This document shows positions 8,145 through 19,785 of a stretch of 64,000 nucleotides of DNA, piece after piece. Position numbers and translations under genes: made by a program. Within the stretch, counting starts at the first letter, position 1; every line of letters begins with the position of its first letter. The notes beneath the pieces are model-generated. The model saw only the letters and a list, made by a program, of their open reading frames with translations, was not told the DNA's origin and searched no databases. The DNA is from a virus (lineage: Duplodnaviria > Caudoviricetes): IMG/VR virus record IMGVR_UViG_3300046779_001679, positions 1-64,000 of that record. The stretch is one strand, 5' to 3'.

Positions 8145-9581
8145 TTACAGCTCGTCTTGAGGTAAGTTATTGATTAATTGTCTAAGTTTAGTACTTTCTA
8201 CTGTAGCTTTTACCTTAGGTACAGGAGCCGAGCTATTTGGATTCACTTCACCAGTAGTAGGATCAACTTCAACAGTTTGTCGATTTTTAATGCTTGCTAG
8301 CAATGAACTGCCTGCACTAGTTGACGCACTGTTTCCGTATGTTTCTTCTTCCTCAAGGTCGTTAATACGTAGAGTATCAAGGTTAAACTCTAAATCAAGT
8401 TTCATACCTACACCGCTTGAACTACGAGTCTTCATTAACTGAATTTGATAACGGCCACGTTCACGCATTGCACGACTTGTAAAAATACCGATAACGTTGT
8501 CAGCAGTTTGAATCTTTGACAAACCGCCCGAAATATGACTGTGGTCAAATTCTACTTCTTCAACAGCACTACGGTTTAACTGACTAGCTGTAACAAAGAT
8601 ACAATTCTTTTCCATAGCTAAGTTACGCAGTTCTTCTGATACGTATTTGTCTTTAATGAACAAGTTTTCTGCACTAATTTTGCGGCTAATAGGCATAAGC
8701 AAGTCTAAGTAGTCAACTAGCAATACATCGATTTTATGCCCCATTTTGATTTCATATTCTTTCAAATACGAACGAATGTCGTTACATGTTTTACCGCTAG
8801 GCATATACTTAACTTGGAACTTGCCTGACTTCTTGCCAAGAATCTTAACCTTCATTTCAACATCGTCGATACTTTTAAAAATCTCACGACTTGGGATTCC
8901 TGTCATCATACTATCAACACGCATTGATACAAGTTCTTCACTAAGTTCGAATGTTAAGTATAAGACATTAAGACCTTGCAATGCCCAGTTTACACCTAAG
9001 TTTGCTAAGAACAAAGATTTACCGCCGCCCGATGCTGCTGCAAAAATGTTTAGCTCGCCGCGGTTCATTCCGCCAAACAACTTGTTATCTAAACTCTTCC
9101 AGCCTGTGCTTACTTGTCCGTTCTTGTCTTTAATTTTCATTAATCGAGCTCTTGGATCTTCAAAGTAGTTTGTACCCATGTCTCTGTTAAGACCAATCTG
9201 AACAGCCGCTTTAATTTTTTCTTCTACTGGACCATACTCACCGTTTTCTAACATGTCAGCAGATTCAAGAATAGCTCTTTCTAGACCTTTGTGTCTTGTA
9301 AAGGTTTCGAAGTCATTCATTAACCAGTCATAATGCTCTTCGCGAAGATTATCAGGAACCTTAAAACTACTGTTAGTCGCTGCATTTACAATTTCTTGAG
9401 TTGGCATGAGACTATGTTCTTTAACATATTCGTTAATAAACTCTGCTGCCAACTGAAGTTTCTTGTCAAATAAAGAATGGTCAAAGATGCTTTGGCAACG
9501 ACTAAATGTTGCTGCATCACTTAACATCATTTCTAAATAGACTTTTTGTATTTCGTAACCGTAATCTGTGTTCTGTTTCAT
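8145..9581 (-). CDS. DnaB/T4 gp41-like replicative helicase
   Basis: Walker A AASGGGKS, LLVDYLDL, TASQLNR, IQTADNV, QLMKTR. Confidence 0.93.
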   Translation of the reverse strand: MKQNTDYGYEIQKVYLEMMLSDAATFSRCQSIFDHSLFDKKLQLAAEFINEYVKEHSLMPTQEIVNAATNSSFKVPDNLREEHYDWLMNDFETFTRHKGLERAILESADMLENGEYGPVEEKIKAAVQIGLNRDMGTNYFEDPRARLMKIKDKNGQVSTGWKSLDNKLFGGMNRGELNIFAAASGGGKSLFLANLGVNWALQGLNVLYLTFELSEELVSMRVDSMMTGIPSREIFKSIDDVEMKVKILGKKSGKFQVKYMPSGKTCNDIRSYLKEYEIKMGHKIDVLLVDYLDLLMPISRKISAENLFIKDKYVSEELRNLAMEKNCIFVTASQLNRSAVEEVEFDHSHISGGLSKIQTADNVIGIFTSRAMRERGRYQIQLMKTRSSSGVGMKLDLEFNLDTLRINDLEEEETYGNSASTSAGSSLLASIKNRQTVEVDPTTGEVNPNSSAPVPKVKATVESTKLRQLINNLPQDEL

Positions 9582-10544: not shown

Positions 10545-10654
10545 TTGTAAATAAATGGATCACGTTTACGTAGTTCAGCAATACGCTTTTTGTAAGCCCT
10601 GTGGTCTGCCCACATTCGCCAAGGTTTTAAAATAAAATCAATTATTCTTTTCAT
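10541..10654 (-). CDS. 37-aa basic peptide MKRIIDFILKPWRMWADHRAYKKRIAELRKRDPFIYK (not in ORF track)
   Basis: Start overlaps the primase 3' end; its TGA overlaps the next ATG (ATGA coupling); AAGGA upstream. Confidence 0.7.
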   Translation of the reverse strand: MKRIIDFILKPWRMWADHRAYKKRIAELRKRDPFIYK

Positions 10655-11648
10655 GTTTGTCCTTAAACCATTTTTTTGCACGCAGTTGAATCTTAAGGCT
10701 ACTAGATTCTTTTGCTTGTATAATTAGCCATAGTGTTGCAAGTTTGCCTAACTTAACAACAGCATCGTTGATATCTTTTACACCACTAGGCCATTCGGGC
10801 ATACTAACTGACCACCCGTATTCTATTGCTTGTTCCACTGTGCGTGGACCTTCGTGATCATTATCTGGAACTAGAATGATTTCTTTTCCTAGTTGTTTTA
10901 ACAACCAATTTTGACTGTCTTTAATTTCTGCACCAAGTAAAGCACATCCATCAATACTTAGCGCATCAAATGGACCTTCAGACACAATTACGAAATCTCG
11001 TTCGTATGTTTGTCTATCTAAATTAAACACATATCCCGGTTGCTGATCACTAAGGTATTTAGGTTTAGCATCATTAATAGCTCGTGCTGTATAACCTACA
11101 CATACCCTATCTTTATAAAACGGAATAATAACTCTGTTCTTAAATCCGAGTTTGCTTGTCCAGTAATATTTGTAACCGTATGGGTCTAACCCTCTGTTGT
11201 TTCGCAAGTAACAAAATACATTTATGAGATCTTGGTCTGTATTTTCCCAACCTTGCATTTCAATCCAAGTGGACCACTCTTCTAAACTCTTAGCACCTTC
11301 TGGTAACGCTACTTCATTAAATGTTGGAATAATGTTTCTTACAAATGAAACATCGCTTTCTTGCTGTCGTAGCGCATCAAGTCTAAGTTGGTTAATGACA
11401 TCATTGGGTACTGACAACAATGACAAAAACTTTTGCATCTTGTTGTTAATAGTCCAACCGGGTTTCCAACTTGCTTTAAAGCCGCAATTAAAACAATGAT
11501 AGCTTACTGTATCATCTGTATTAAAGATAATGCCGCCGCGTTGTTTTTTATCTCCGCAGCAAGGGGCATTAAAAGATGTCCAACCACTAAGGGTTACTTT
11601 CTTTTTACCCGGCAAGTATGCTTTAATTGTATCGATGATAAGGCTCAT
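10638..11648 (-). CDS. DNA primase (T4 gp61/DnaG-like)
   Basis: Zn ligands PCC...YHCFNC; GYTAR; TOPRIM motifs VSEGPFDA and PDND. Confidence 0.9.
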   Translation of the reverse strand: MSLIIDTIKAYLPGKKKVTLSGWTSFNAPCCGDKKQRGGIIFNTDDTVSYHCFNCGFKASWKPGWTINNKMQKFLSLLSVPNDVINQLRLDALRQQESDVSFVRNIIPTFNEVALPEGAKSLEEWSTWIEMQGWENTDQDLINVFCYLRNNRGLDPYGYKYYWTSKLGFKNRVIIPFYKDRVCVGYTARAINDAKPKYLSDQQPGYVFNLDRQTYERDFVIVSEGPFDALSIDGCALLGAEIKDSQNWLLKQLGKEIILVPDNDHEGPRTVEQAIEYGWSVSMPEWPSGVKDINDAVVKLGKLATLWLIIQAKESSSLKIQLRAKKWFKDKHEKNN

Positions 11649-11684: not shown

Positions 11685-12750
11685 CAACTCCGGCATAATT
11701 AATGCCAGAAACTGAGTAAGTTCCAGCACCGTCTGATGCAGTGCCAGTCCATGTAAATGACGTAATTGAACTAACTGCATAACTAGAAATGCCGCCTTCT
11801 AGAGAAGTAACTGTGATGTATAAGTCGTTTGTTACATCAACGCCGCCTAGTAAACTACCAGGAACTCTAAGTACAGCACCAACACCGTAACCGGTGCCGC
11901 CTTTTTCTAAAGTAACGTTGTACACACTATTTTCTTTTGTTACTCTAAATATAGCACTTCTTCCATTTAATGTCGGTGTCTGATATGATACTCTGAAATG
12001 TGTGTAATCTCCAATTGGCAAAGCTGAACCAAATGGAATAGTACCTGTAAACAAATCAGTATCCCATATCCAAGATCCAAATGGTTTGCCGGCACTGCGC
12101 CATGACTCAACACTGATAGTATCCGATGTCGCTGCTTCGATCCAAATAGTTCCTTTAAACCCAATAACGTCAATTGCTAGGTCAACTGATGTAGTTTTAA
12201 TTGCTTCGTAAAACTTAACAGGGATTGCACTGCTGTGATATATTGGATTACCATTGAGATCAATTTCTGCTGTAAAGTCTTTGTAAACTTTAGGAGCTCT
12301 TATAACTGGCATGGCATCAGTAATTAATTCAATTGTTCCTGCTAGGCCAAATCTTGTATCACCGTAAAGAGGAATTGTGTTTGTTCCTTTAGTAGCGGTT
12401 ACACTATATGATAAAAATTGATGATCTAAACCGTCAAGGTCTGCGCTAGGAATGGTTGCAGTTGCTATACCCTTAATTGTTGCACTAGGAGTAACTGTGT
12501 AAGGACTGTTAGGAAGGGCATACCCACTTGCGTCCATTACGTTTAATTGCATGTTTGTTATCTCAGGTGTTGACACTAATTCCAAACGTTTCTCGTCTGC
12601 GTTTTTTATGTCAAACTCAAGGACATTATCTACACCCTTATAAATTTTAACTGTTCTTTGATACACGTTTGTAAACTCCACATTGAAGCCCGCCAAATCA
12701 GCTAATAACTGAATCCTATTTGGATATAAATATGTTGAGATTTTTTGCAT
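11662..12750 (-). CDS. Putative virion structural protein with one beta-rich fibre-type repeat
   Basis: YNVTLEKGGTGYGVG...GSLLGGVDVTNDLYITV matches repeats in the giant tail genes; TAAATA upstream. Confidence 0.65.
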   Translation of the reverse strand: MQKISTYLYPNRIQLLADLAGFNVEFTNVYQRTVKIYKGVDNVLEFDIKNADEKRLELVSTPEITNMQLNVMDASGYALPNSPYTVTPSATIKGIATATIPSADLDGLDHQFLSYSVTATKGTNTIPLYGDTRFGLAGTIELITDAMPVIRAPKVYKDFTAEIDLNGNPIYHSSAIPVKFYEAIKTTSVDLAIDVIGFKGTIWIEAATSDTISVESWRSAGKPFGSWIWDTDLFTGTIPFGSALPIGDYTHFRVSYQTPTLNGRSAIFRVTKENSVYNVTLEKGGTGYGVGAVLRVPGSLLGGVDVTNDLYITVTSLEGGISSYAVSSITSFTWTGTASDGAGTYSVSGINYAGVVDKITLS

Positions 12751-12776
12751 TCTGGCAAACCTATAATATAGTATTT

Positions 12777-13151
12777 ATGGCAAAATTAAGAGAAGATATA
12801 GAACAAAATTTACCGTTTATTTCGGTCATTAACTACGGCGGAGAAGAGTACATAGGAATTATCATTAACCAAGATCAATTTGTTACTAGCTTCTATGATC
12901 TAAATGCTATCAAAACCCCAGAGGAAAAACAAGCATTTTTAGAAGTAGGCGAAACTTGGTGGTGGGAAAGCAATAGACAATTTCCAATCAGTATTTTCTG
13001 TAAAGAGCAAATTCACCCGTTCGCGTATGCGATTAAAACTTTTAACAGTAAAGATGTTAGAGTTATATTAGGGCCCGTGGTTAACCTAATGAACTTAACT
13101 CTTAAAAGAGTAAAACGTAAAAGTGTTCAACTAGTTAGAAGAACTCGTTAA
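12777..13151 (+). CDS. Hypothetical protein (MAKLREDIE...WWWESNR)
   Basis: In-frame ATG 12777 within track ORF 12720..13151. Confidence 0.7.
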   Translation: MAKLREDIEQNLPFISVINYGGEEYIGIIINQDQFVTSFYDLNAIKTPEEKQAFLEVGETWWWESNRQFPISIFCKEQIHPFAYAIKTFNSKDVRVILGPVVNLMNLTLKRVKRKSVQLVRRTR

Positions 13152-13726
13152 CTGTAACCGTAACTTATCTTTTCGCAGATTAAATTCATCTGCACAACAA
13201 CTACATGAGCATATGCAATGGCGTGTGCTTTCTTAAAGTAGTAATCACCGTTCTCCGGCTTCGTCCAAATCTCCGTACCAATCTCCGTCCAAGTCTTCCC
13301 AATTAGGTGTTTCTTTGCAGGGCGGATTAAAGCGAGACACATTGCCAATTCTTCTATAGAAGAAGGTTTCATCTGTCTCAATAAGCTCCCGTGCCCATTT
13401 ACGTGGAATAGTAAATCCGTGAAATCGTCTTGTTCCAGTAAGTCCCATAGTGGTTCAGTCTCCATAAGTTGTTTAAGATGCTGCCTGTCTTTTACACCTT
13501 CGTATACACTTACATTAAGAAAATCTATCTTAAAATAACCTCTATCTTCTGCTTCTTTGTAGTCTATAGTACTTAACCCCGTAAAAGGATTGTACGGAAT
13601 AGGAGTACAATACACACCAGTATTGTGCTTTTTAAAAGTGCCATTATCTCCAATGGCAGCTACTACATGCTTGAACTTATCAAGTGCTTTACTTCGATCT
13701 GCAAAGTCGATATCGATATCTGGCAT
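13148..13726 (-). CDS. dnaE: Minimal DNA polymerase III alpha (family C/DnaE) catalytic core, 192 aa
   Basis: PDIDIDF, HNTGV, KIDFL, LALIRP and FKKAHAIAY correspond in order to DnaE motifs PDFDVDF, HAGG, KFDFL, ALFRP and FNKSHSAAY. Confidence 0.85.
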   Translation of the reverse strand: MPDIDIDFADRSKALDKFKHVVAAIGDNGTFKKHNTGVYCTPIPYNPFTGLSTIDYKEAEDRGYFKIDFLNVSVYEGVKDRQHLKQLMETEPLWDLLEQDDFTDLLFHVNGHGSLLRQMKPSSIEELAMCLALIRPAKKHLIGKTWTEIGTEIWTKPENGDYYFKKAHAIAYAHVVVVQMNLICEKISYGYS

Positions 13727-13920
13727 TAGTGTTTTACCTCTGATTCAAATAACATCAACGGTAATACTTCTGTTAAGTATTCTGCATACTTGTCAGCTTC
13801 GTTAATATCGTCAAATCCTGAAATCTTAACATACACTGAGTTGTCTTCTTCTGATACTAACACTTTCATGTCCAACTGGAGAGCATCTGGATTTGTGTTA
13901 ACGTGATTGGTACTTGTCAT
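13726..13920 (-). CDS. Small acidic hypothetical protein
   Basis: Translationally coupled to both neighbours. Confidence 0.6.
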   Translation of the reverse strand: MTSTNHVNTNPDALQLDMKVLVSEEDNSVYVKISGFDDINEADKYAEYLTEVLPLMLFESEVKH

Positions 13921-14609
13921 ATTTTAGATTCCTTAACAACTTCTTTTACTAGCTCTACATCTGCTGGCATTTTTTTAAATTTATTGAGCCAATATGGAAC
14001 GTCCATAATTGTGCCAATTGCTGCTAACTGTTCGTCATTAAAGTTGCGTAACATATCTTTGCCATTCTTTGAATTTAAAACAATCCACGGGCTAATTTTA
14101 CCATCTTTAATGTCATACATAACTCTATTTAAACTTGCATAAAGGAAGTAATGATTCCATTGGGCATTGTTGTTATCACCCCATTTAATCATAGTTTCAA
14201 TGCTTCGTTCAAGGGCAACTTCAACTGGTTCTTTTTTAATTAGATAAACAACGTATTTGTCATACAGTTCATCCCTGCACCAATGATCTAGTTTAACTCC
14301 GCTTTGAACAACGTAGTCCAAAAACTTATCAGGGTATAATGGATTAACGTTACTAACAAAACTTCCAAACTTTACAAATTGATTGTAGTATGGGCTTTTT
14401 GCAAACTCATCATAAGTTTTTACACCATTAAAGTTTTGATTAAACTTGTAAAATCGGTTATAAGTATCATATCCTATAACAACATGTTTTTCAGTTTTTG
14501 CTAACGCTCTACGTTTTTGCTCGCAGACATGCACAGACAAAGTCTTTTCTTTAGCAAACTTATGTCCGCAGTACTGACAAACGTAGGGTTGTTCAGCTAG
14601 TGCCATCAT
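13917..14609 (-). CDS. Hypothetical protein with N-terminal C2H2/C2HC-type zinc finger
   Basis: YVCQYCGHKFAKEKTLSVHVC. Confidence 0.75.
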   Translation of the reverse strand: MMALAEQPYVCQYCGHKFAKEKTLSVHVCEQKRRALAKTEKHVVIGYDTYNRFYKFNQNFNGVKTYDEFAKSPYYNQFVKFGSFVSNVNPLYPDKFLDYVVQSGVKLDHWCRDELYDKYVVYLIKKEPVEVALERSIETMIKWGDNNNAQWNHYFLYASLNRVMYDIKDGKISPWIVLNSKNGKDMLRNFNDEQLAAIGTIMDVPYWLNKFKKMPADVELVKEVVKESKI

Positions 14610-15088
14610 TTAACAATTTTCTTAATAGTTGCGTCATCGATTCCGTGATCTTTTGCTAGCTCTTTAAACTCTTTGTCAGTCATAATTTTTGCTAGCAATT
14701 CAATCTCATCTTCCTTCATTGTAGGAAAGAAACTTAGTAACATTGGAATCTTTTTATTACTAGACATGCGTTTAGTTGGAAGCCATTCGTGGAAATAAGT
14801 TTTTCCATCATTAACACTACACATGCAAAGTAGAAACCAAAGAAGTTTTGCATCTTCTTTTTGCAAAGCATTCCAGTTCTTATTATAGTATTCGTTTACT
14901 GTTAAAACAAAGTGTTCTTGGAGATCTCGACTGCTGTGTTTTACACTGCTAATGTATCGATTAAGGTTCCACATGTCGCCTTTGATTTCCTTGCGACCTT
15001 CGTCAGTAGTTGCATCCCACAGTTCCTTAACATTTAAGTCAACTGCTGGAATAATATCTTTAAATAGGTCTACATGCTTATTTGACAT
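14606..15088 (-). CDS. Clamp-loader small subunit (T4 gp62-like)
   Basis: Size, WNLNRYISS, FHEWLP.K and FP.MKEDEIELLA patterns; replication-operon context. Confidence 0.6.
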   Translation of the reverse strand: MSNKHVDLFKDIIPAVDLNVKELWDATTDEGRKEIKGDMWNLNRYISSVKHSSRDLQEHFVLTVNEYYNKNWNALQKEDAKLLWFLLCMCSVNDGKTYFHEWLPTKRMSSNKKIPMLLSFFPTMKEDEIELLAKIMTDKEFKELAKDHGIDDATIKKIVK

Positions 15089-15704
15089 CTGGTTCTAACC
15101 TCGCATCGAATGCCATTACAATTCTGCTTCCATTGCCTTTCCAAGGATAAACGGTATGTGGTATTACACTTGGGAATAAAATAATACTGCCTGCTTGTGG
15201 TTTATAGTTCCAAGTATCACTCATTACAAATCTAGTAATGTCTCTTGTTTGAGGTAATTTAAACGCAATATGTGCATCACAAGGATTACTATCATCAGGC
15301 AAGTCTGGAACACTAATGTACATGTTACCGCTCAAGTTGCCGCCTGGGTGTGTATGCAACTCTTGATAGTGCCCAGCTTCTTGTTTAATAGTCCAAATAC
15401 TAGTGACTACCGGCTTACATAGCTTGAGATCTTCTTTACCACTTTGTGCTGTGATAATTTCCATATAACCTCTGCAAACTAGTTCTAAATATTTTACAAG
15501 CCAGTCTACGTTAACACCTAGTGTATTTGGATACACTTGAATTTGTTGTCCTCCGCGAATACTAATTAGCGGATTCATTGCATCATTTAATTCTGGATGA
15601 TTGTGCAATTCACTTGCAAGATTAAAAATTTTACTAAATTCAACAGGCGGTATTTGATCAACTGCAATAACCGTTGGTTGAAAGTATGCTACATGCAATG
15701 CCAT
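15078..15704 (-). CDS. 2OG-Fe(II) oxygenase-like protein (TIGR02466-type, HxH)
   Basis: HTHPGGNLSGNMYI...FPSVIPHTVYP...RIVMAF. Confidence 0.8.
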   Translation of the reverse strand: MALHVAYFQPTVIAVDQIPPVEFSKIFNLASELHNHPELNDAMNPLISIRGGQQIQVYPNTLGVNVDWLVKYLELVCRGYMEIITAQSGKEDLKLCKPVVTSIWTIKQEAGHYQELHTHPGGNLSGNMYISVPDLPDDSNPCDAHIAFKLPQTRDITRFVMSDTWNYKPQAGSIILFPSVIPHTVYPWKGNGSRIVMAFDARLEPDVK

Positions 15705-15967
15705 TATGTTTGTTCCTCACTGAGTTTATAGATCATTATAGCACGATCTAATGCAGATTTTAAAGTGATATTGGTTTTTGCTTTTCGCCGAATGTCGGAC
15801 CACATCATATCTTCCTGCATTTCTTTTTCAATTTCTTCTTTAGATCGTACTACATTTGGGTAGTCCATGCCTATAATTGTTCTTTCACCCGAGCCAAATT
15901 CTCTGGCATATGTAACGCCATTTGCTCGTTCATATATGTAAGTAGCACCAGGAGTTAAGTTTCCCAT
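15704..15967 (-). CDS. Small hypothetical protein
   Basis: Coupled ORF with 1-nt overlaps on both sides. Confidence 0.65.
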   Translation of the reverse strand: MGNLTPGATYIYERANGVTYAREFGSGERTIIGMDYPNVVRSKEEIEKEMQEDMMWSDIRRKAKTNITLKSALDRAIMIYKLSEEQT

Positions 15968-16548
15968 TATTCGATCCTTGTTGTATTAAATGCAAGTGAA
16001 ATACGCTCTACATCCGATGTGTTCGGTCCTACACAATGTGGCAAGTAACTTGGGAACATAATAATAGTTCCAGGTATAGGATCAATTGCTCGTGTTTCGC
16101 CTGCGAATTCATTGCGTTCAGGGCATGAATTAAATCCTTCCCATAAATGTATAGGTGCAGGATTAGTCAAGTATAGTTTGCCGCTACCTTTTGGAACTTG
16201 CAGATAAAATACTCCAGAAATTACACCACCATGTATATGCTGTAGATTAAACGCACCTGGAGTATCGTTTATATTAACCCATGACTCCATTACTCTCAAA
16301 TTTCCTCGCAAGCCAATAGACTCGGCTGCTTGATTTGTTATAAGAGTAATGAAATCAAATAATGGCTTAAATTCAGGTGCTTCGTGAACCAATGTTTTAC
16401 TATGTTTGCCGTTTACGTTTGATCGAATTTCTTCGGGATACCGACTCATGTAACTTTTTAAATCAGTAATAAGCGTATCCTTAAGAATATCAAAATTGGG
16501 ATATTGAATATCCCAAATAGGAACAGCAAATAAAGTATTAACGATCAT
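15967..16548 (-). CDS. 2OG-Fe(II) oxygenase-like protein (TIGR02466-type, HxH)
   Basis: HIHGGVISGVFYL...FPSYLPHCVGP...RISLAFN. Confidence 0.85.
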   Translation of the reverse strand: MIVNTLFAVPIWDIQYPNFDILKDTLITDLKSYMSRYPEEIRSNVNGKHSKTLVHEAPEFKPLFDFITLITNQAAESIGLRGNLRVMESWVNINDTPGAFNLQHIHGGVISGVFYLQVPKGSGKLYLTNPAPIHLWEGFNSCPERNEFAGETRAIDPIPGTIIMFPSYLPHCVGPNTSDVERISLAFNTTRIE

Positions 16549-17056: not shown

Positions 17057-18526
17057 TTATTTTTGCCAATCCACTTTATCAATCGTGAAGGGATACTTGG
17101 CTTCCTTGTAAAATTTTTTCCTCGTTGTGAGGTGACGTTTCGCATATTTACAAGTGGAGGTAATGTCCCAGACCTGGACGAAGTCTTTGTCTTCTGCTTT
17201 TCGAATGCCTCGCCCAATGCTTTGTATAACTCTCGTAAAGCTCTTTCCGGGCTCCAAAAGAACCAAATTGAAAATACGAGGAATATTAATACCCACAGCG
17301 GCCACACCGTAAGTCGCCACAGTAATCTTGTCATTTGAAATTGCATGTTCTTTATACTCCGCCTTTCGGTCTTTTCCTTTTACTTCACCTGATATAAATG
17401 CTGCTTCTGGTAATAGTTCTGTTAAAAATTTGCCTGTGTCGATTCTATTCACTAATATAAGTGTATTGCCTGACTCTGATATGCCTTTAATTAAATTTGC
17501 TAGGTATGTCATACGTTCCTTGTTAGTAACAAGATACTTTAATTCTTCTGAGTATGACTTAAATTCTGGTAGGTCTAGTAGCTGTACAATTTGAATTTGT
17601 AAATTGCTTAACACACCCATTTCTTGTAATTGGTATGCAGCAATACCGCCAACGACTGGGCCGATGCTTGCAAAAATTGGTGCTGACTCAAATTCTTCTT
17701 TAGGAACTGTGCCTGTTAAGCCCCACCTAATAGGTGCATTTCTTAAGTTTTGTGTTAAGAGATTTTGTAGCACTTGTGCCTTGGCCATGTGTACTTCATC
17801 AACAATAACAGTTTCAACATCTTCGAGGAATTCTGCTAATGTTAGTGCATCATTTTCGTCCCAATTCTTTGATTTTTTATCAAGGACGTTAAGACTTTGC
17901 CATGTACAAATAGTATGCTTATGACCGATCATCTTTCGATCACCAAAATATACCCCTACATCTAGCCCCACATTAACAAAGTCCTCTTCAGTTTGTGTGA
18001 CGAGGTCTTTGTTAGGAACAATGACAACCGTGCGTCCATATTTTTCTGCACAGTGGGCAAGGGTAGCAGTCATGATGGTCTTACCTGCGCCAGTTGCTAC
18101 TTCTTGCAATGCTTGTGTGTTGGTAAAAAAGCGATTTACAACCTCTACTTGGTCATCTCTTAACATAATTGGTTGTCCAGCAAAGCGATGTCCTTCTGGC
18201 CATACCTTACCCATATCAGCCCAATAACTATTTTTAATTTCGTCGAAAGAAATTAATCCAGTAGTACGTAAATCTTCTACTTCACTAATATCAATATCAC
18301 ATTCTGCAAGTACTTCTAAGCACTTTTCTAACTGGCTCAGATAGCCGTTGCCTCCGAGCCCAAACATACTAACACTGCCATCCCAACGTCCTAGCTTGTA
18401 TGCTGGCCTGTATCGAGCAGTTGGATCTTCGTACTTAAATGTGTTTGCTAATTTTTTGCGAGCATCAAGAGGTAACCCCTCAAATTTGATGTTTACCTCG
18501 TCTCTTATAATTAATTTTATTCCCAT
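17057..18526 (-). CDS. uvsW: UvsW-like superfamily-2 DNA helicase
   Basis: ATGAGKT, DEVH, GLTGT, VATYG, QSIGRGIR. Confidence 0.92.
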   Translation of the reverse strand: MGIKLIIRDEVNIKFEGLPLDARKKLANTFKYEDPTARYRPAYKLGRWDGSVSMFGLGGNGYLSQLEKCLEVLAECDIDISEVEDLRTTGLISFDEIKNSYWADMGKVWPEGHRFAGQPIMLRDDQVEVVNRFFTNTQALQEVATGAGKTIMTATLAHCAEKYGRTVVIVPNKDLVTQTEEDFVNVGLDVGVYFGDRKMIGHKHTICTWQSLNVLDKKSKNWDENDALTLAEFLEDVETVIVDEVHMAKAQVLQNLLTQNLRNAPIRWGLTGTVPKEEFESAPIFASIGPVVGGIAAYQLQEMGVLSNLQIQIVQLLDLPEFKSYSEELKYLVTNKERMTYLANLIKGISESGNTLILVNRIDTGKFLTELLPEAAFISGEVKGKDRKAEYKEHAISNDKITVATYGVAAVGINIPRIFNLVLLEPGKSFTRVIQSIGRGIRKAEDKDFVQVWDITSTCKYAKRHLTTRKKFYKEAKYPFTIDKVDWQK

Positions 18527-19707
18527 GCAATCTTTGGCTCGTATAAAGGCTCCTTATCAGTGTAAGTGATTACAAGGTCACAACAATTTGCATAGACAGC
18601 AGTTTTGTTATGTCGTAAGCTATTTCCAATGCTAATAACACTCATAGGTTTCCAGTCGTTTTTTAGCAAAAATTTCGGAATTTTTCCACTTTGAACACCG
18701 ACAATTTTTGTGTCAGGAGTTAACACACAATTATATTTCTTTTGACTAATCAGTTGATTAAATTCTTTTCCTTGCTCATCGTTAGCAAGTCTAAAGTAAA
18801 TTCCTACATTATCAGTGATTCCATTTTTTTCCAAAATTTCACTGATTTTTGCCAATTCTTTGGCAGATTCTTTTGTGCCATATGAATCAAATACTAGCAG
18901 CGTTGGAAGACGATTCAATTCGACCAAACTTTCAAAAATATTGTCCAAAGAAAATTTAGACTTGTCAATCCATACTTTTGTGCTGTATCTGTTGGCAATA
19001 ATTTCTGTTGTATTTTCCGGTTCTTTTTCAGATTTTTTGGTAAAATACTGGTACCGCACAGACCTGTCTGCAACCAACATAGGATTAGTAACAGAGTCTT
19101 CGTTTAATTCTGCTTTTATCTTTTTTAAGAACTGTTCGTGCGTAATGTTGTCAAATGCAAACTTAGATTCAATTTCAGTTTTTGACCAAGATTTGATAAT
19201 TTCGTAAAATTCCATCAATTTTTCGTCAACATCAAACCCCAATCCTTTGACACCGTCGATTAAGGCAACAATATTTTTTTCAGTGTAACTTGCGTAGTAC
19301 AGCTTACCACTTGTTACTTGTACAAGTCCAGACAGCACTTTGTTCATAGCCATAATTTTTTGTCTAATGGCCGTAGAAAACGCAAATTCGATGGCAATAA
19401 CCGGGCTGCTTTCTTTTTCGAACTCAACGTATATACGCTTAGTCTTGTCAGCTGGTCTGAAAGGCTTTGACCACTTTGGATCGCCTAAACTACTGTCAAT
19501 GTCTTCAACTAGTTGGGACACAATTTTCTTGTTTTCGTTAAAAATTTTCACAATTAGTCGACCTTGATTTTCTGTAATAAAGTTAGGACCTGAAATATTC
19601 TTGTATAGGCTGGATAAGATACGAACGTCTCTATGAGCCATAGACTCTTTGAGAGTATCGATATTATTTGTTACCAAGTGCCTGAGGATTTGATCAATTT
19701 CTTTCAT
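18517..19707 (-). CDS. Hypothetical protein, 396 aa
   Basis: Long ORF coupled to uvsW with its own leaderless promoter. Confidence 0.75.
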   Translation of the reverse strand: MKEIDQILRHLVTNNIDTLKESMAHRDVRILSSLYKNISGPNFITENQGRLIVKIFNENKKIVSQLVEDIDSSLGDPKWSKPFRPADKTKRIYVEFEKESSPVIAIEFAFSTAIRQKIMAMNKVLSGLVQVTSGKLYYASYTEKNIVALIDGVKGLGFDVDEKLMEFYEIIKSWSKTEIESKFAFDNITHEQFLKKIKAELNEDSVTNPMLVADRSVRYQYFTKKSEKEPENTTEIIANRYSTKVWIDKSKFSLDNIFESLVELNRLPTLLVFDSYGTKESAKELAKISEILEKNGITDNVGIYFRLANDEQGKEFNQLISQKKYNCVLTPDTKIVGVQSGKIPKFLLKNDWKPMSVISIGNSLRHNKTAVYANCCDLVITYTDKEPLYEPKIAWE

Positions 19708-19713
19708 AACAAT

Positions 19714-19742
19714 ATTTTAACATTAGCAATAGTACAAGTCAA
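19714..19742 (-). promoter_or_regulatory. sigma70-type promoter TTGACT-17-TAAAAT, leaderless
   Basis: Hexamers at 19737-19742 and 19714-19719; ATG 6 nt downstream. Confidence 0.8.
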
Positions 19743-19750
19743 CATCTTAG

Positions 19751-19785
19751 AAAAAAATAGGCCTCATAAATATTTAAGGCCTATT
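19751..19785 (-). terminator. Intrinsic terminator after uvsY
   Basis: AATAGGCCT...AGGCCTATT stem followed by a T-run on the minus strand. Confidence 0.7.

Follow-up and report, generated by a model that had tools for sequence, protein, structure and literature searches.

A phage DnaE-like protein of 192 residues is probably the C-terminal half of a split, minimal Pol III alpha

The window analysed here comprises 64,000 nucleotides of the IMG/VR virus record IMGVR_UViG_3300046779_001679, the whole of which is an 82.5-kb contig of an uncultured phage that is ~22% complete according to CheckV. On its minus strand, the window carries a gene for a 192-residue protein that in our judgement is, with a probability of roughly 0.8, the C-terminal half of a two-chain, DnaE-like nucleotidyltransferase. 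The carriers of this two-piece, minimal C-family enzyme are RaK2-, PA5oct- and Atu_ph07-like large phages. The split arrangement is already known as a computational prediction: a split minimal Pol III alpha was predicted for the group 2.2 jumbo phages, where it accompanies a family B polymerase and was proposed to serve in the synthesis of one strand or in repair (Iyer, Anantharaman, Krishnan, Burroughs and Aravind 2021, Viruses 13:63, PMC7824862). The present copy is therefore an ordinary member of the group. The additions made here to the published prediction are natural fused forms of the two halves, statistics on invariant residues and selection, a structural model of the C-terminal half (hereafter the C unit), a conserved gene neighbourhood and a member from a phage below jumbo size.

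The features of the gene on which the argument rests are the following.

13148..13726, minus strand: C-terminal unit of the putative split minimal Pol III alpha, 192 aa, containing the DxD strand, the KxD strand, a short hairpin in the place of a thumb, and a finger core of reduced size (ORF, PHROG 11778, AlphaFold2, Foldseek, VIA).
13706..13720, minus strand: codons of D3-I-D5-I-D7, the predicted metal-binding DxD strand, equivalent to E. coli D401/D403 (sequence, conservation, phmmer).
13523..13531, minus strand: codons of K66-I-D68, invariant and aligned to KMDFL of DnaE1; K66/D68 are the equivalents of E. coli K553/D555, and D68 is the predicted third catalytic carboxylate.
13319..13324, minus strand: codons of R135-P136, an invariant finger motif (ALYRPGP in DnaE).
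13223..13234, minus strand: codons of K165-A-H168 of FKKAH (FNKSH in DnaE), from conservation and alignment to FNKSHAAGY of DnaE1.

The ORF is intact and opens with an ATG that is overlapped, in the sequence TAATG, by the TAA of an upstream 64-codon gene; a GAGG lies 10 nt 5' of the start. Translation yields a product that begins with MPDIDIDF (D3, D5 and D7) and continues with K66-I-D68-F-L, LALIRP at residues 131-136 and FKKAHAIAY at residues 164-172, leaving 63 residues between D5 and D68. When the protein was compared with PDB sequences using phmmer, these motifs were colinear with those of M. tuberculosis DnaE1, whose counterparts are MPDIDIDF at 413-420, KMDFL at ~580, ALYRPGP at ~660 and FNKSH at ~777. 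The preliminary description of this DNA had singled out the same motifs (PDIDIDF, KIDFL at D68, LALIRP and FKKAHAIAY) and the same 63-residue spacing, and the translation, together with the colinearity with DnaE1, shows that it described the ORF accurately. It was also right that the PHP, clamp-binding and OB domains are absent from the chain while all three acids are kept, as judged by Pfam, NCBIfam and conservation. Moreover, our searches of the 82.5-kb contig revealed no upstream frame or intron that joins the ORF to a conventional DnaE.

The predicted fold places the protein within the same family. An AlphaFold2 model of the C unit alone had a pLDDT of 96.6 and a pTM of 0.89, and its top 17 Foldseek matches in the PDB were all Pol III alpha or PolC. 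Aligned with VIA-align, the model superimposed on residues 461-841 of Taq Pol III alpha (PDB 3e0d) with a Z of 10.0 over 188 of its 192 residues, on residues 971-1296 of PolC (3f2b) with a Z of 9.6 over 185 residues, and on residues 400-781 of E. coli Pol III alpha (2hnh) with a Z of 9.0 over 184 residues; the best unrelated chain reached a Z of 3.0. These alignments imply that the C unit covers DnaE from the DxD strand to the helix that follows FNKSH, in half the length (192 residues compared with ~380 for the equivalent span). Like DnaE/Pol III alpha (2hnh, 3e0d, 4iqj, 5lew, 7pu7) and PolC (3f2b), it has the palm DxD and a third Asp with a preceding Lys, followed by the RPG and (F)xKxH finger motifs in the same order, with 184-190 residues superposing at a Z of 9-10. 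Unlike DnaE, it is without PHP, thumb, clamp-binding, HhH and OB domains, and the first half of the palm lies on another polypeptide. The position of the thumb is taken in the model by a beta-hairpin (strands 21-27 and 30-39), and the segment between RPG and FNKSH is shortened from ~110 residues in DnaE to ~27. That long segment is reportedly the index finger, and what the C unit retains the middle finger, in the terms of Lamers and colleagues in 2006. The GRGS nucleotide-binding motif and the palm helices, which come before the DxD strand in DnaE, are absent from the chain. Judged from its sequence, the C unit is not a whole polymerase, and its palm is incomplete within one chain.

In relatives, a separate N unit of ~170 residues carries palm helices and the GRGS motif. 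In the Sinorhizobium phage Phosso and the PA5oct-like phage PAC2, the N-unit genes have 169-177 codons and match Pfam DNA_pol3_alpha (21-97) over its cut-off, at distances of 224 kb (Phosso) and 44 kb (PAC2) from the C-unit gene. Both products end with the stretch GVGRGSSVASYVL, followed by KYNLD..FL and a stop codon. This end corresponds exactly to that of a DnaE cut after FERFLN, a single turn ahead of MPDxDxDF. Across a wider set, the N unit exceeded the cut-off of Pfam DNA_pol3_alpha (PF07733; profile ~13-98) in all ten of the sufficiently complete relatives, namely Phosso, PAC2, 121Q, Atu_ph07, XacN1, Vibrio phage 2.275.O, Slickus01 and three IMG/VR relatives that are 60-83% complete and whose C units are 72-79% identical to that of the window. 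In relatives, its gene lies 11-224 kb from the C-unit gene. Furthermore, C and N units were almost equally numerous in a phage collection when counted by organism (C/N: Escherichia 34/34, Erwinia 8/8, Salmonella 8/8, Xanthomonas 4/4, Yersinia 4/4).

At the three N-unit loci inspected, in G001, Phosso and PAC2 (L094:929-1252 on the minus strand, L012 and L013), the gene stands just upstream of a GroES-like gene, directly adjacent to it in G001 and separated from it by a single small gene in the other two. A gene for an AAA ATPase lies near the N-unit locus in both PAC2 and Phosso. Both units are also present in the Alishewanella phage vB_AspM_Slickus01 (Slickus01; L125), which at 141.6 kb falls below the 200-kb limit for jumbo phages, so the split enzyme is not restricted to that class. 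The Slickus01 C unit has 204 residues and is encoded downstream of an RFC-like clamp-loader gene, with the N unit ~11 kb away.

We did not find an N unit in the window's own record when the whole 82.5-kb contig was searched with a motif regular expression, with Pfam PF07733 and by tblastn with two N units, and we attribute this to the contig being ~22% complete. Nor was a family B polymerase found in the contig; such a polymerase was found in the relatives Phosso, PAC2, G002 and G003. For both proteins we infer the presence in this phage from its relatives, and the gene for the N unit would sit in the ~78% of the genome that lies beyond the contig.

The two units also occur in nature as a single chain. 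In an exhaustive HMMER scan, one representative of 375 aa, P0218, matched the C unit with its residues 190-370; its sequence consists of an N unit joined to a C unit through a linker of ten residues. Two more fused forms, P0272 and P0273, are 78-81% identical to P0218, the fusions being 375-376 aa long. The fused genes come from four contigs of four samples (L102, L122, L123, L124), three of which contain no letter N in their sequence. Pfam DNA_pol3_alpha runs unbroken across the fusion junction (profile 12-121). The fused gene occupies the C-unit locus, and contigs of sufficient length continue beyond it with homologs of the convergent small ORF and the structural gene that the window has there. 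These contigs have a GC content of 26-27%, compared with 40% for the window, and in two of the four a DNA methylase gene stands directly upstream of the fusion. The fused clusters number three and are near-identical, against thousands that are split, so the simpler reading would be that a single lineage fused the two genes secondarily. Taken together, the fusions and the continuous Pfam match provide support, of a comparative kind only, for the N and C units forming one enzyme. The AlphaFold2 model of the P0218 fusion was poor (pLDDT 62, with the palm sheet below 50) and was built on a shallow alignment (A6); when the input contained many C units, MAFFT placed N units wrongly on the C half (alignments A2 and A3).

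Besides the fusions, the only longer relative of the C unit was P0121, a 550-aa protein with exonuclease and PHP parts that we considered as a PHP-linked C unit and rejected. Here, 99 nt of the 3' end of a C-unit gene, 82% identical, sit beside a run of the letter N inside a bacterial exonuclease-PHP-dnaE gene (L101:6698-6796; ENA scaffold GROS21-1 scaffold_1839). By its sequence, P0121 looks like a scaffolding artefact, a chimera, not a fusion.

The genes and signals around the C unit that bear on its role are these.

19756-19785: strong terminator of uvsY, which precedes the promoter match.
19714..19742, minus strand: best sigma-70-like promoter match of the region (consensus match only).
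17057..18526, minus strand: UvsW-like helicase, in the same abutting or overlapping run as the C unit (annotation, synteny).
14606..15088, minus strand: 160-aa protein, phrog_11758, not recognisably gp62-like (Pfam, PHROGs, NCBIfam).
13917..14609, minus strand: 230-aa protein with an N-terminal C2H2-like zinc finger, phrog_11058 (PHROGs match, tblastn synteny).
13726..13920, minus strand: acidic 64-aa protein, upstream of the C unit (ORF; no family match).
12720..13151, plus strand: convergent 143-aa ORF, phrog_11637 (PHROGs match, synteny).
10638..11648, minus strand: DnaG-type primase, 1.5 kb downstream of the C unit and on the same strand (annotation, synteny).
8145..9581, minus strand: DnaB-like replicative helicase (annotation, synteny).

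Between the terminator and promoter match listed above and position 13148 lies a run of eleven abutting or overlapping genes, in the order 396-aa gene, uvsW, phrog_11279, 2OG-Fe(II) oxygenase, 87-aa gene, a further 2OG-Fe(II) oxygenase, phrog_11758, zinc-finger gene, 64-aa gene and C unit. To judge from the sequence, the promoter match at 19714-19742 may start this 11-gene run, which ends at the C unit. Upstream of the run lie uvsY, uvsX and the gene for a gp32-like SSB; downstream of the C unit follow the convergent ORF, a structural gene, the DnaG-type primase gene, a carbamoyltransferase fragment and dnaB. The window as a whole contains T4-like SSB, UvsX, UvsY, UvsW, terminase and tail sheath. 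Using tblastn, we found the order uvsW, p174, zinc-finger gene, C unit, convergent ORF, primase and dnaB to be kept in Phosso, PAC2, 121Q, Atu_ph07 and Vibrio 2.275.

The resemblance to T4 does not extend to the clamp-loader region. The C-unit gene had been placed downstream of a gp62-like gene, roughly where T4 has regA and gp43. Searches with Pfam, PHROGs and NCBIfam and with the Slickus01 RFC-like protein uncovered no gp62- or gp44-like gene, either nearby or in the contig, and the positional analogy to gp62, regA and gp43 is left unsupported by the same profile searches and clamp-loader query. The 64-, 230- and 160-aa products encoded upstream matched no clamp-loader family when compared with Pfam, PHROGs and NCBIfam, and the Slickus01 clamp loader and its three neighbours had no match in the whole 82.5-kb contig.

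The C unit and the convergent phrog_11637 ORF overlap tail-to-tail by 4 nt, which leaves no room for a terminator between them. The same convergent arrangement recurs in Phosso, PAC2, 121Q, Atu_ph07 and Vibrio 2.275, as well as beside the fused forms.

A two-chain enzyme could work as follows. The C unit supplies the D3/D5 strand, the K66/D68 strand and the reduced finger core (R135-P136 and K165/H168), the N unit of the relatives supplies the preceding half of the palm and ends exactly where the C unit begins, and the two chains would assemble into one Pol-beta-like palm. The assembled enzyme would then be an active, low-processivity, DNA-templated polymerase that stands beside the family B replicase and acts in primer extension or in recombination-dependent and repair synthesis. 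Both kinds of role are suggested by the position of the gene, with uvsX, uvsY and uvsW upstream and a DnaG-type primase and a DnaB helicase downstream. Templated polymerisation is not assured, however, since the enzyme would have no thumb, clamp-binding, OB or PHP domain and few fingers.

We also considered a reading in which the N and C units are indeed halves of a single enzyme with a Pol-beta-like palm, but one that is non-templated: a terminal transferase, a transferase that modifies DNA or nucleotides, or a maker of signalling nucleotides. Other enzymes of the Pol-beta fold catalyse reactions of these kinds. Such an activity would suit an enzyme that has shed its thumb, its clamp-binding and OB domains and the greater part of its fingers, and the relatives already own a full family B replicase. 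Nevertheless, the part retained outside the palm is the finger core of DnaE, with its invariant RP and conserved K..H, which is absent from the non-polymerase enzymes of the Pol-beta fold, and a conserved gene order ties the gene to those for recombination, primase and helicase. We regard a non-templated enzyme as unlikely.

A second alternative holds that the C unit is self-sufficient, functioning as a mini polymerase or nucleotidyltransferase alone or together with the zinc-finger and acidic proteins. All three carboxylates do reside in one chain, AlphaFold2 folds that chain confidently on its own, overlapping start and stop codons suggest translational coupling to the genes upstream, and a zinc-finger gene precedes the C unit in five of six distant phages examined by tblastn (directly next to it in PAC2; elsewhere one to three small genes intervene). 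Set against this, the GRGS motif and palm helices sit in a co-occurring N unit that ends at the point where the C unit starts; the natural fusions join N to C, not a zinc-finger protein to C; the zinc-finger and 64-aa proteins match no polymerase family; and the C units of XacN1 and Slickus01 have no detectable zinc-finger homolog nearby. For the zinc-finger family, the ESM Atlas gave virus-only hypothetical clusters and no named function. Self-sufficiency therefore strikes us as very improbable. The preliminary description had envisaged a split polymerase completed in trans, perhaps by the adjacent zinc-finger and acidic proteins. In light of the N unit, the fusions and the published prediction, the split itself is the best-supported reading; the two neighbours as the missing piece were rejected, as an N unit with GRGS is encoded elsewhere and is naturally fused to the C unit.

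The family to which the C unit belongs is large and strongly constrained. The protein matches PHROG 11778 ('DNA polymerase', 197 positions) with an E of 1.5e-70 (residues 3-186 on profile positions 8-194), a similarity in sequence that is far beyond chance. At least 7986 clusters at 90% identity were counted in a metagenome protein collection, and the exhaustive HMMER scan returned 436 representatives of clusters at 50% identity. In 96 phage records, the C unit shares 34-54% identity with this protein. Among 85 full-length representatives that are 32-55% identical to it, no substitution occurs at D3, D5, K66, D68, R135 or P136; at least 90% keep D7, K165 and H168, and H34, G37 and K138 are also nearly invariant. 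Homologs with decayed catalytic Asp residues, which the preliminary description had named as a sign of a pseudogene, were accordingly not seen in this set. Estimates of dN/dS from gap-free, close IMG/VR relatives came to ~0.07-0.11, with dS near saturation. Conventional DnaE profiles barely register the protein: Pfam DNA_pol3_finger stays below threshold (18.4 bits for a cut-off of 22), the NCBIfam DnaE models give at most 17 bits for cut-offs of 434-1653, and both kinds of model match residues 88-138 weakly. A decaying, non-catalytic remnant or pseudoenzyme of a captured bacterial dnaE might be expected from the very small size and the loss of most DnaE domains, yet with catalytic residues invariant across such divergent representatives, a dN/dS of ~0.1, a length and a DxD-strand start that are constant in hundreds of lineages and a fold predicted with high confidence, it is the least credible of the readings and we disfavour it.

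The two-chain DnaE-like enzyme that we prefer agrees closely with the published split system. In length, motifs and neighbourhood, the C unit matches those of PA5oct-like and 121Q/RaK2-like phages, Atu_ph07 and Phosso (43-54% identity), and the relatives encode an N unit far away as well as a family B polymerase, as described for that system (PMC7824862). There is no essential difference from it, the contig of this uncultured phage being short of the N unit and PolB. GenBank records label both units 'DnaE-like DNA polymerase III alpha'. Our literature search found no experimental study of the split Pol III, which is also absent from a 2026 jumbo-phage review.

A functional parallel, by analogy only, is provided by bacteria in which a second, C-family polymerase operates beside the main replicase. 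Bacillus subtilis DnaE is said to extend RNA primers and to hand them off to PolC, as reported by Sanders and colleagues in 2010. Here, the C-unit gene lies near genes for a DnaG-type primase and a DnaB-type helicase; unlike in B. subtilis, the main replicase would belong to family B, and each chain is ten times smaller. The two-chain mini Pol III might be a dedicated hand-off polymerase that extends primers from the neighbouring DnaG-type primase, or the invading 3' ends produced by UvsX, UvsY and UvsW, before PolB takes over. We put this forward tentatively, as a proposal that is more likely wrong than right; a primer-extender had also been among the readings of the preliminary description. 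The activity of the enzyme could moreover be gated by separate transcription units, the C unit being encoded with recombination and primase genes and the N unit beside a GroES-like gene.

If the hand-off role were true, a bacterial-type (DnaE-like) primer extender would be working inside a replisome of T4/archaeo-eukaryotic type. If the two halves are active together, they would make the smallest C-family polymerase core by a wide margin, with ~360 residues compared with more than 1000 and an active-site sheet built from two polypeptides. Such an enzyme would be a natural minimal model for the mechanism and evolution of DnaE-type polymerases and would give a very abundant group of large phages a second polymerase. 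The fused forms offer a single-chain version for expression.

Two other parts of the same gene block deserve mention. Genes for 2OG-Fe(II) oxygenases at 15078-15704 and 15967-16548 (both minus strand) are inserted between uvsW and the C unit; the same block in the cultured relatives that we compared is without them. Between uvsY and uvsW lies the 396-aa gene (18517-19707, minus strand), whose product has no match in Pfam, PHROGs or NCBIfam. Its position is occupied in 121Q and Vibrio phage 2.275 by a gene for a stand-alone DnaQ-like (RNase_T) exonuclease, and in XacN1 a DnaQ-like exonuclease is encoded 2.3 kb downstream of the C unit. The 396-aa protein, or the DnaQ-like exonuclease found there, might proofread for the mini polymerase.
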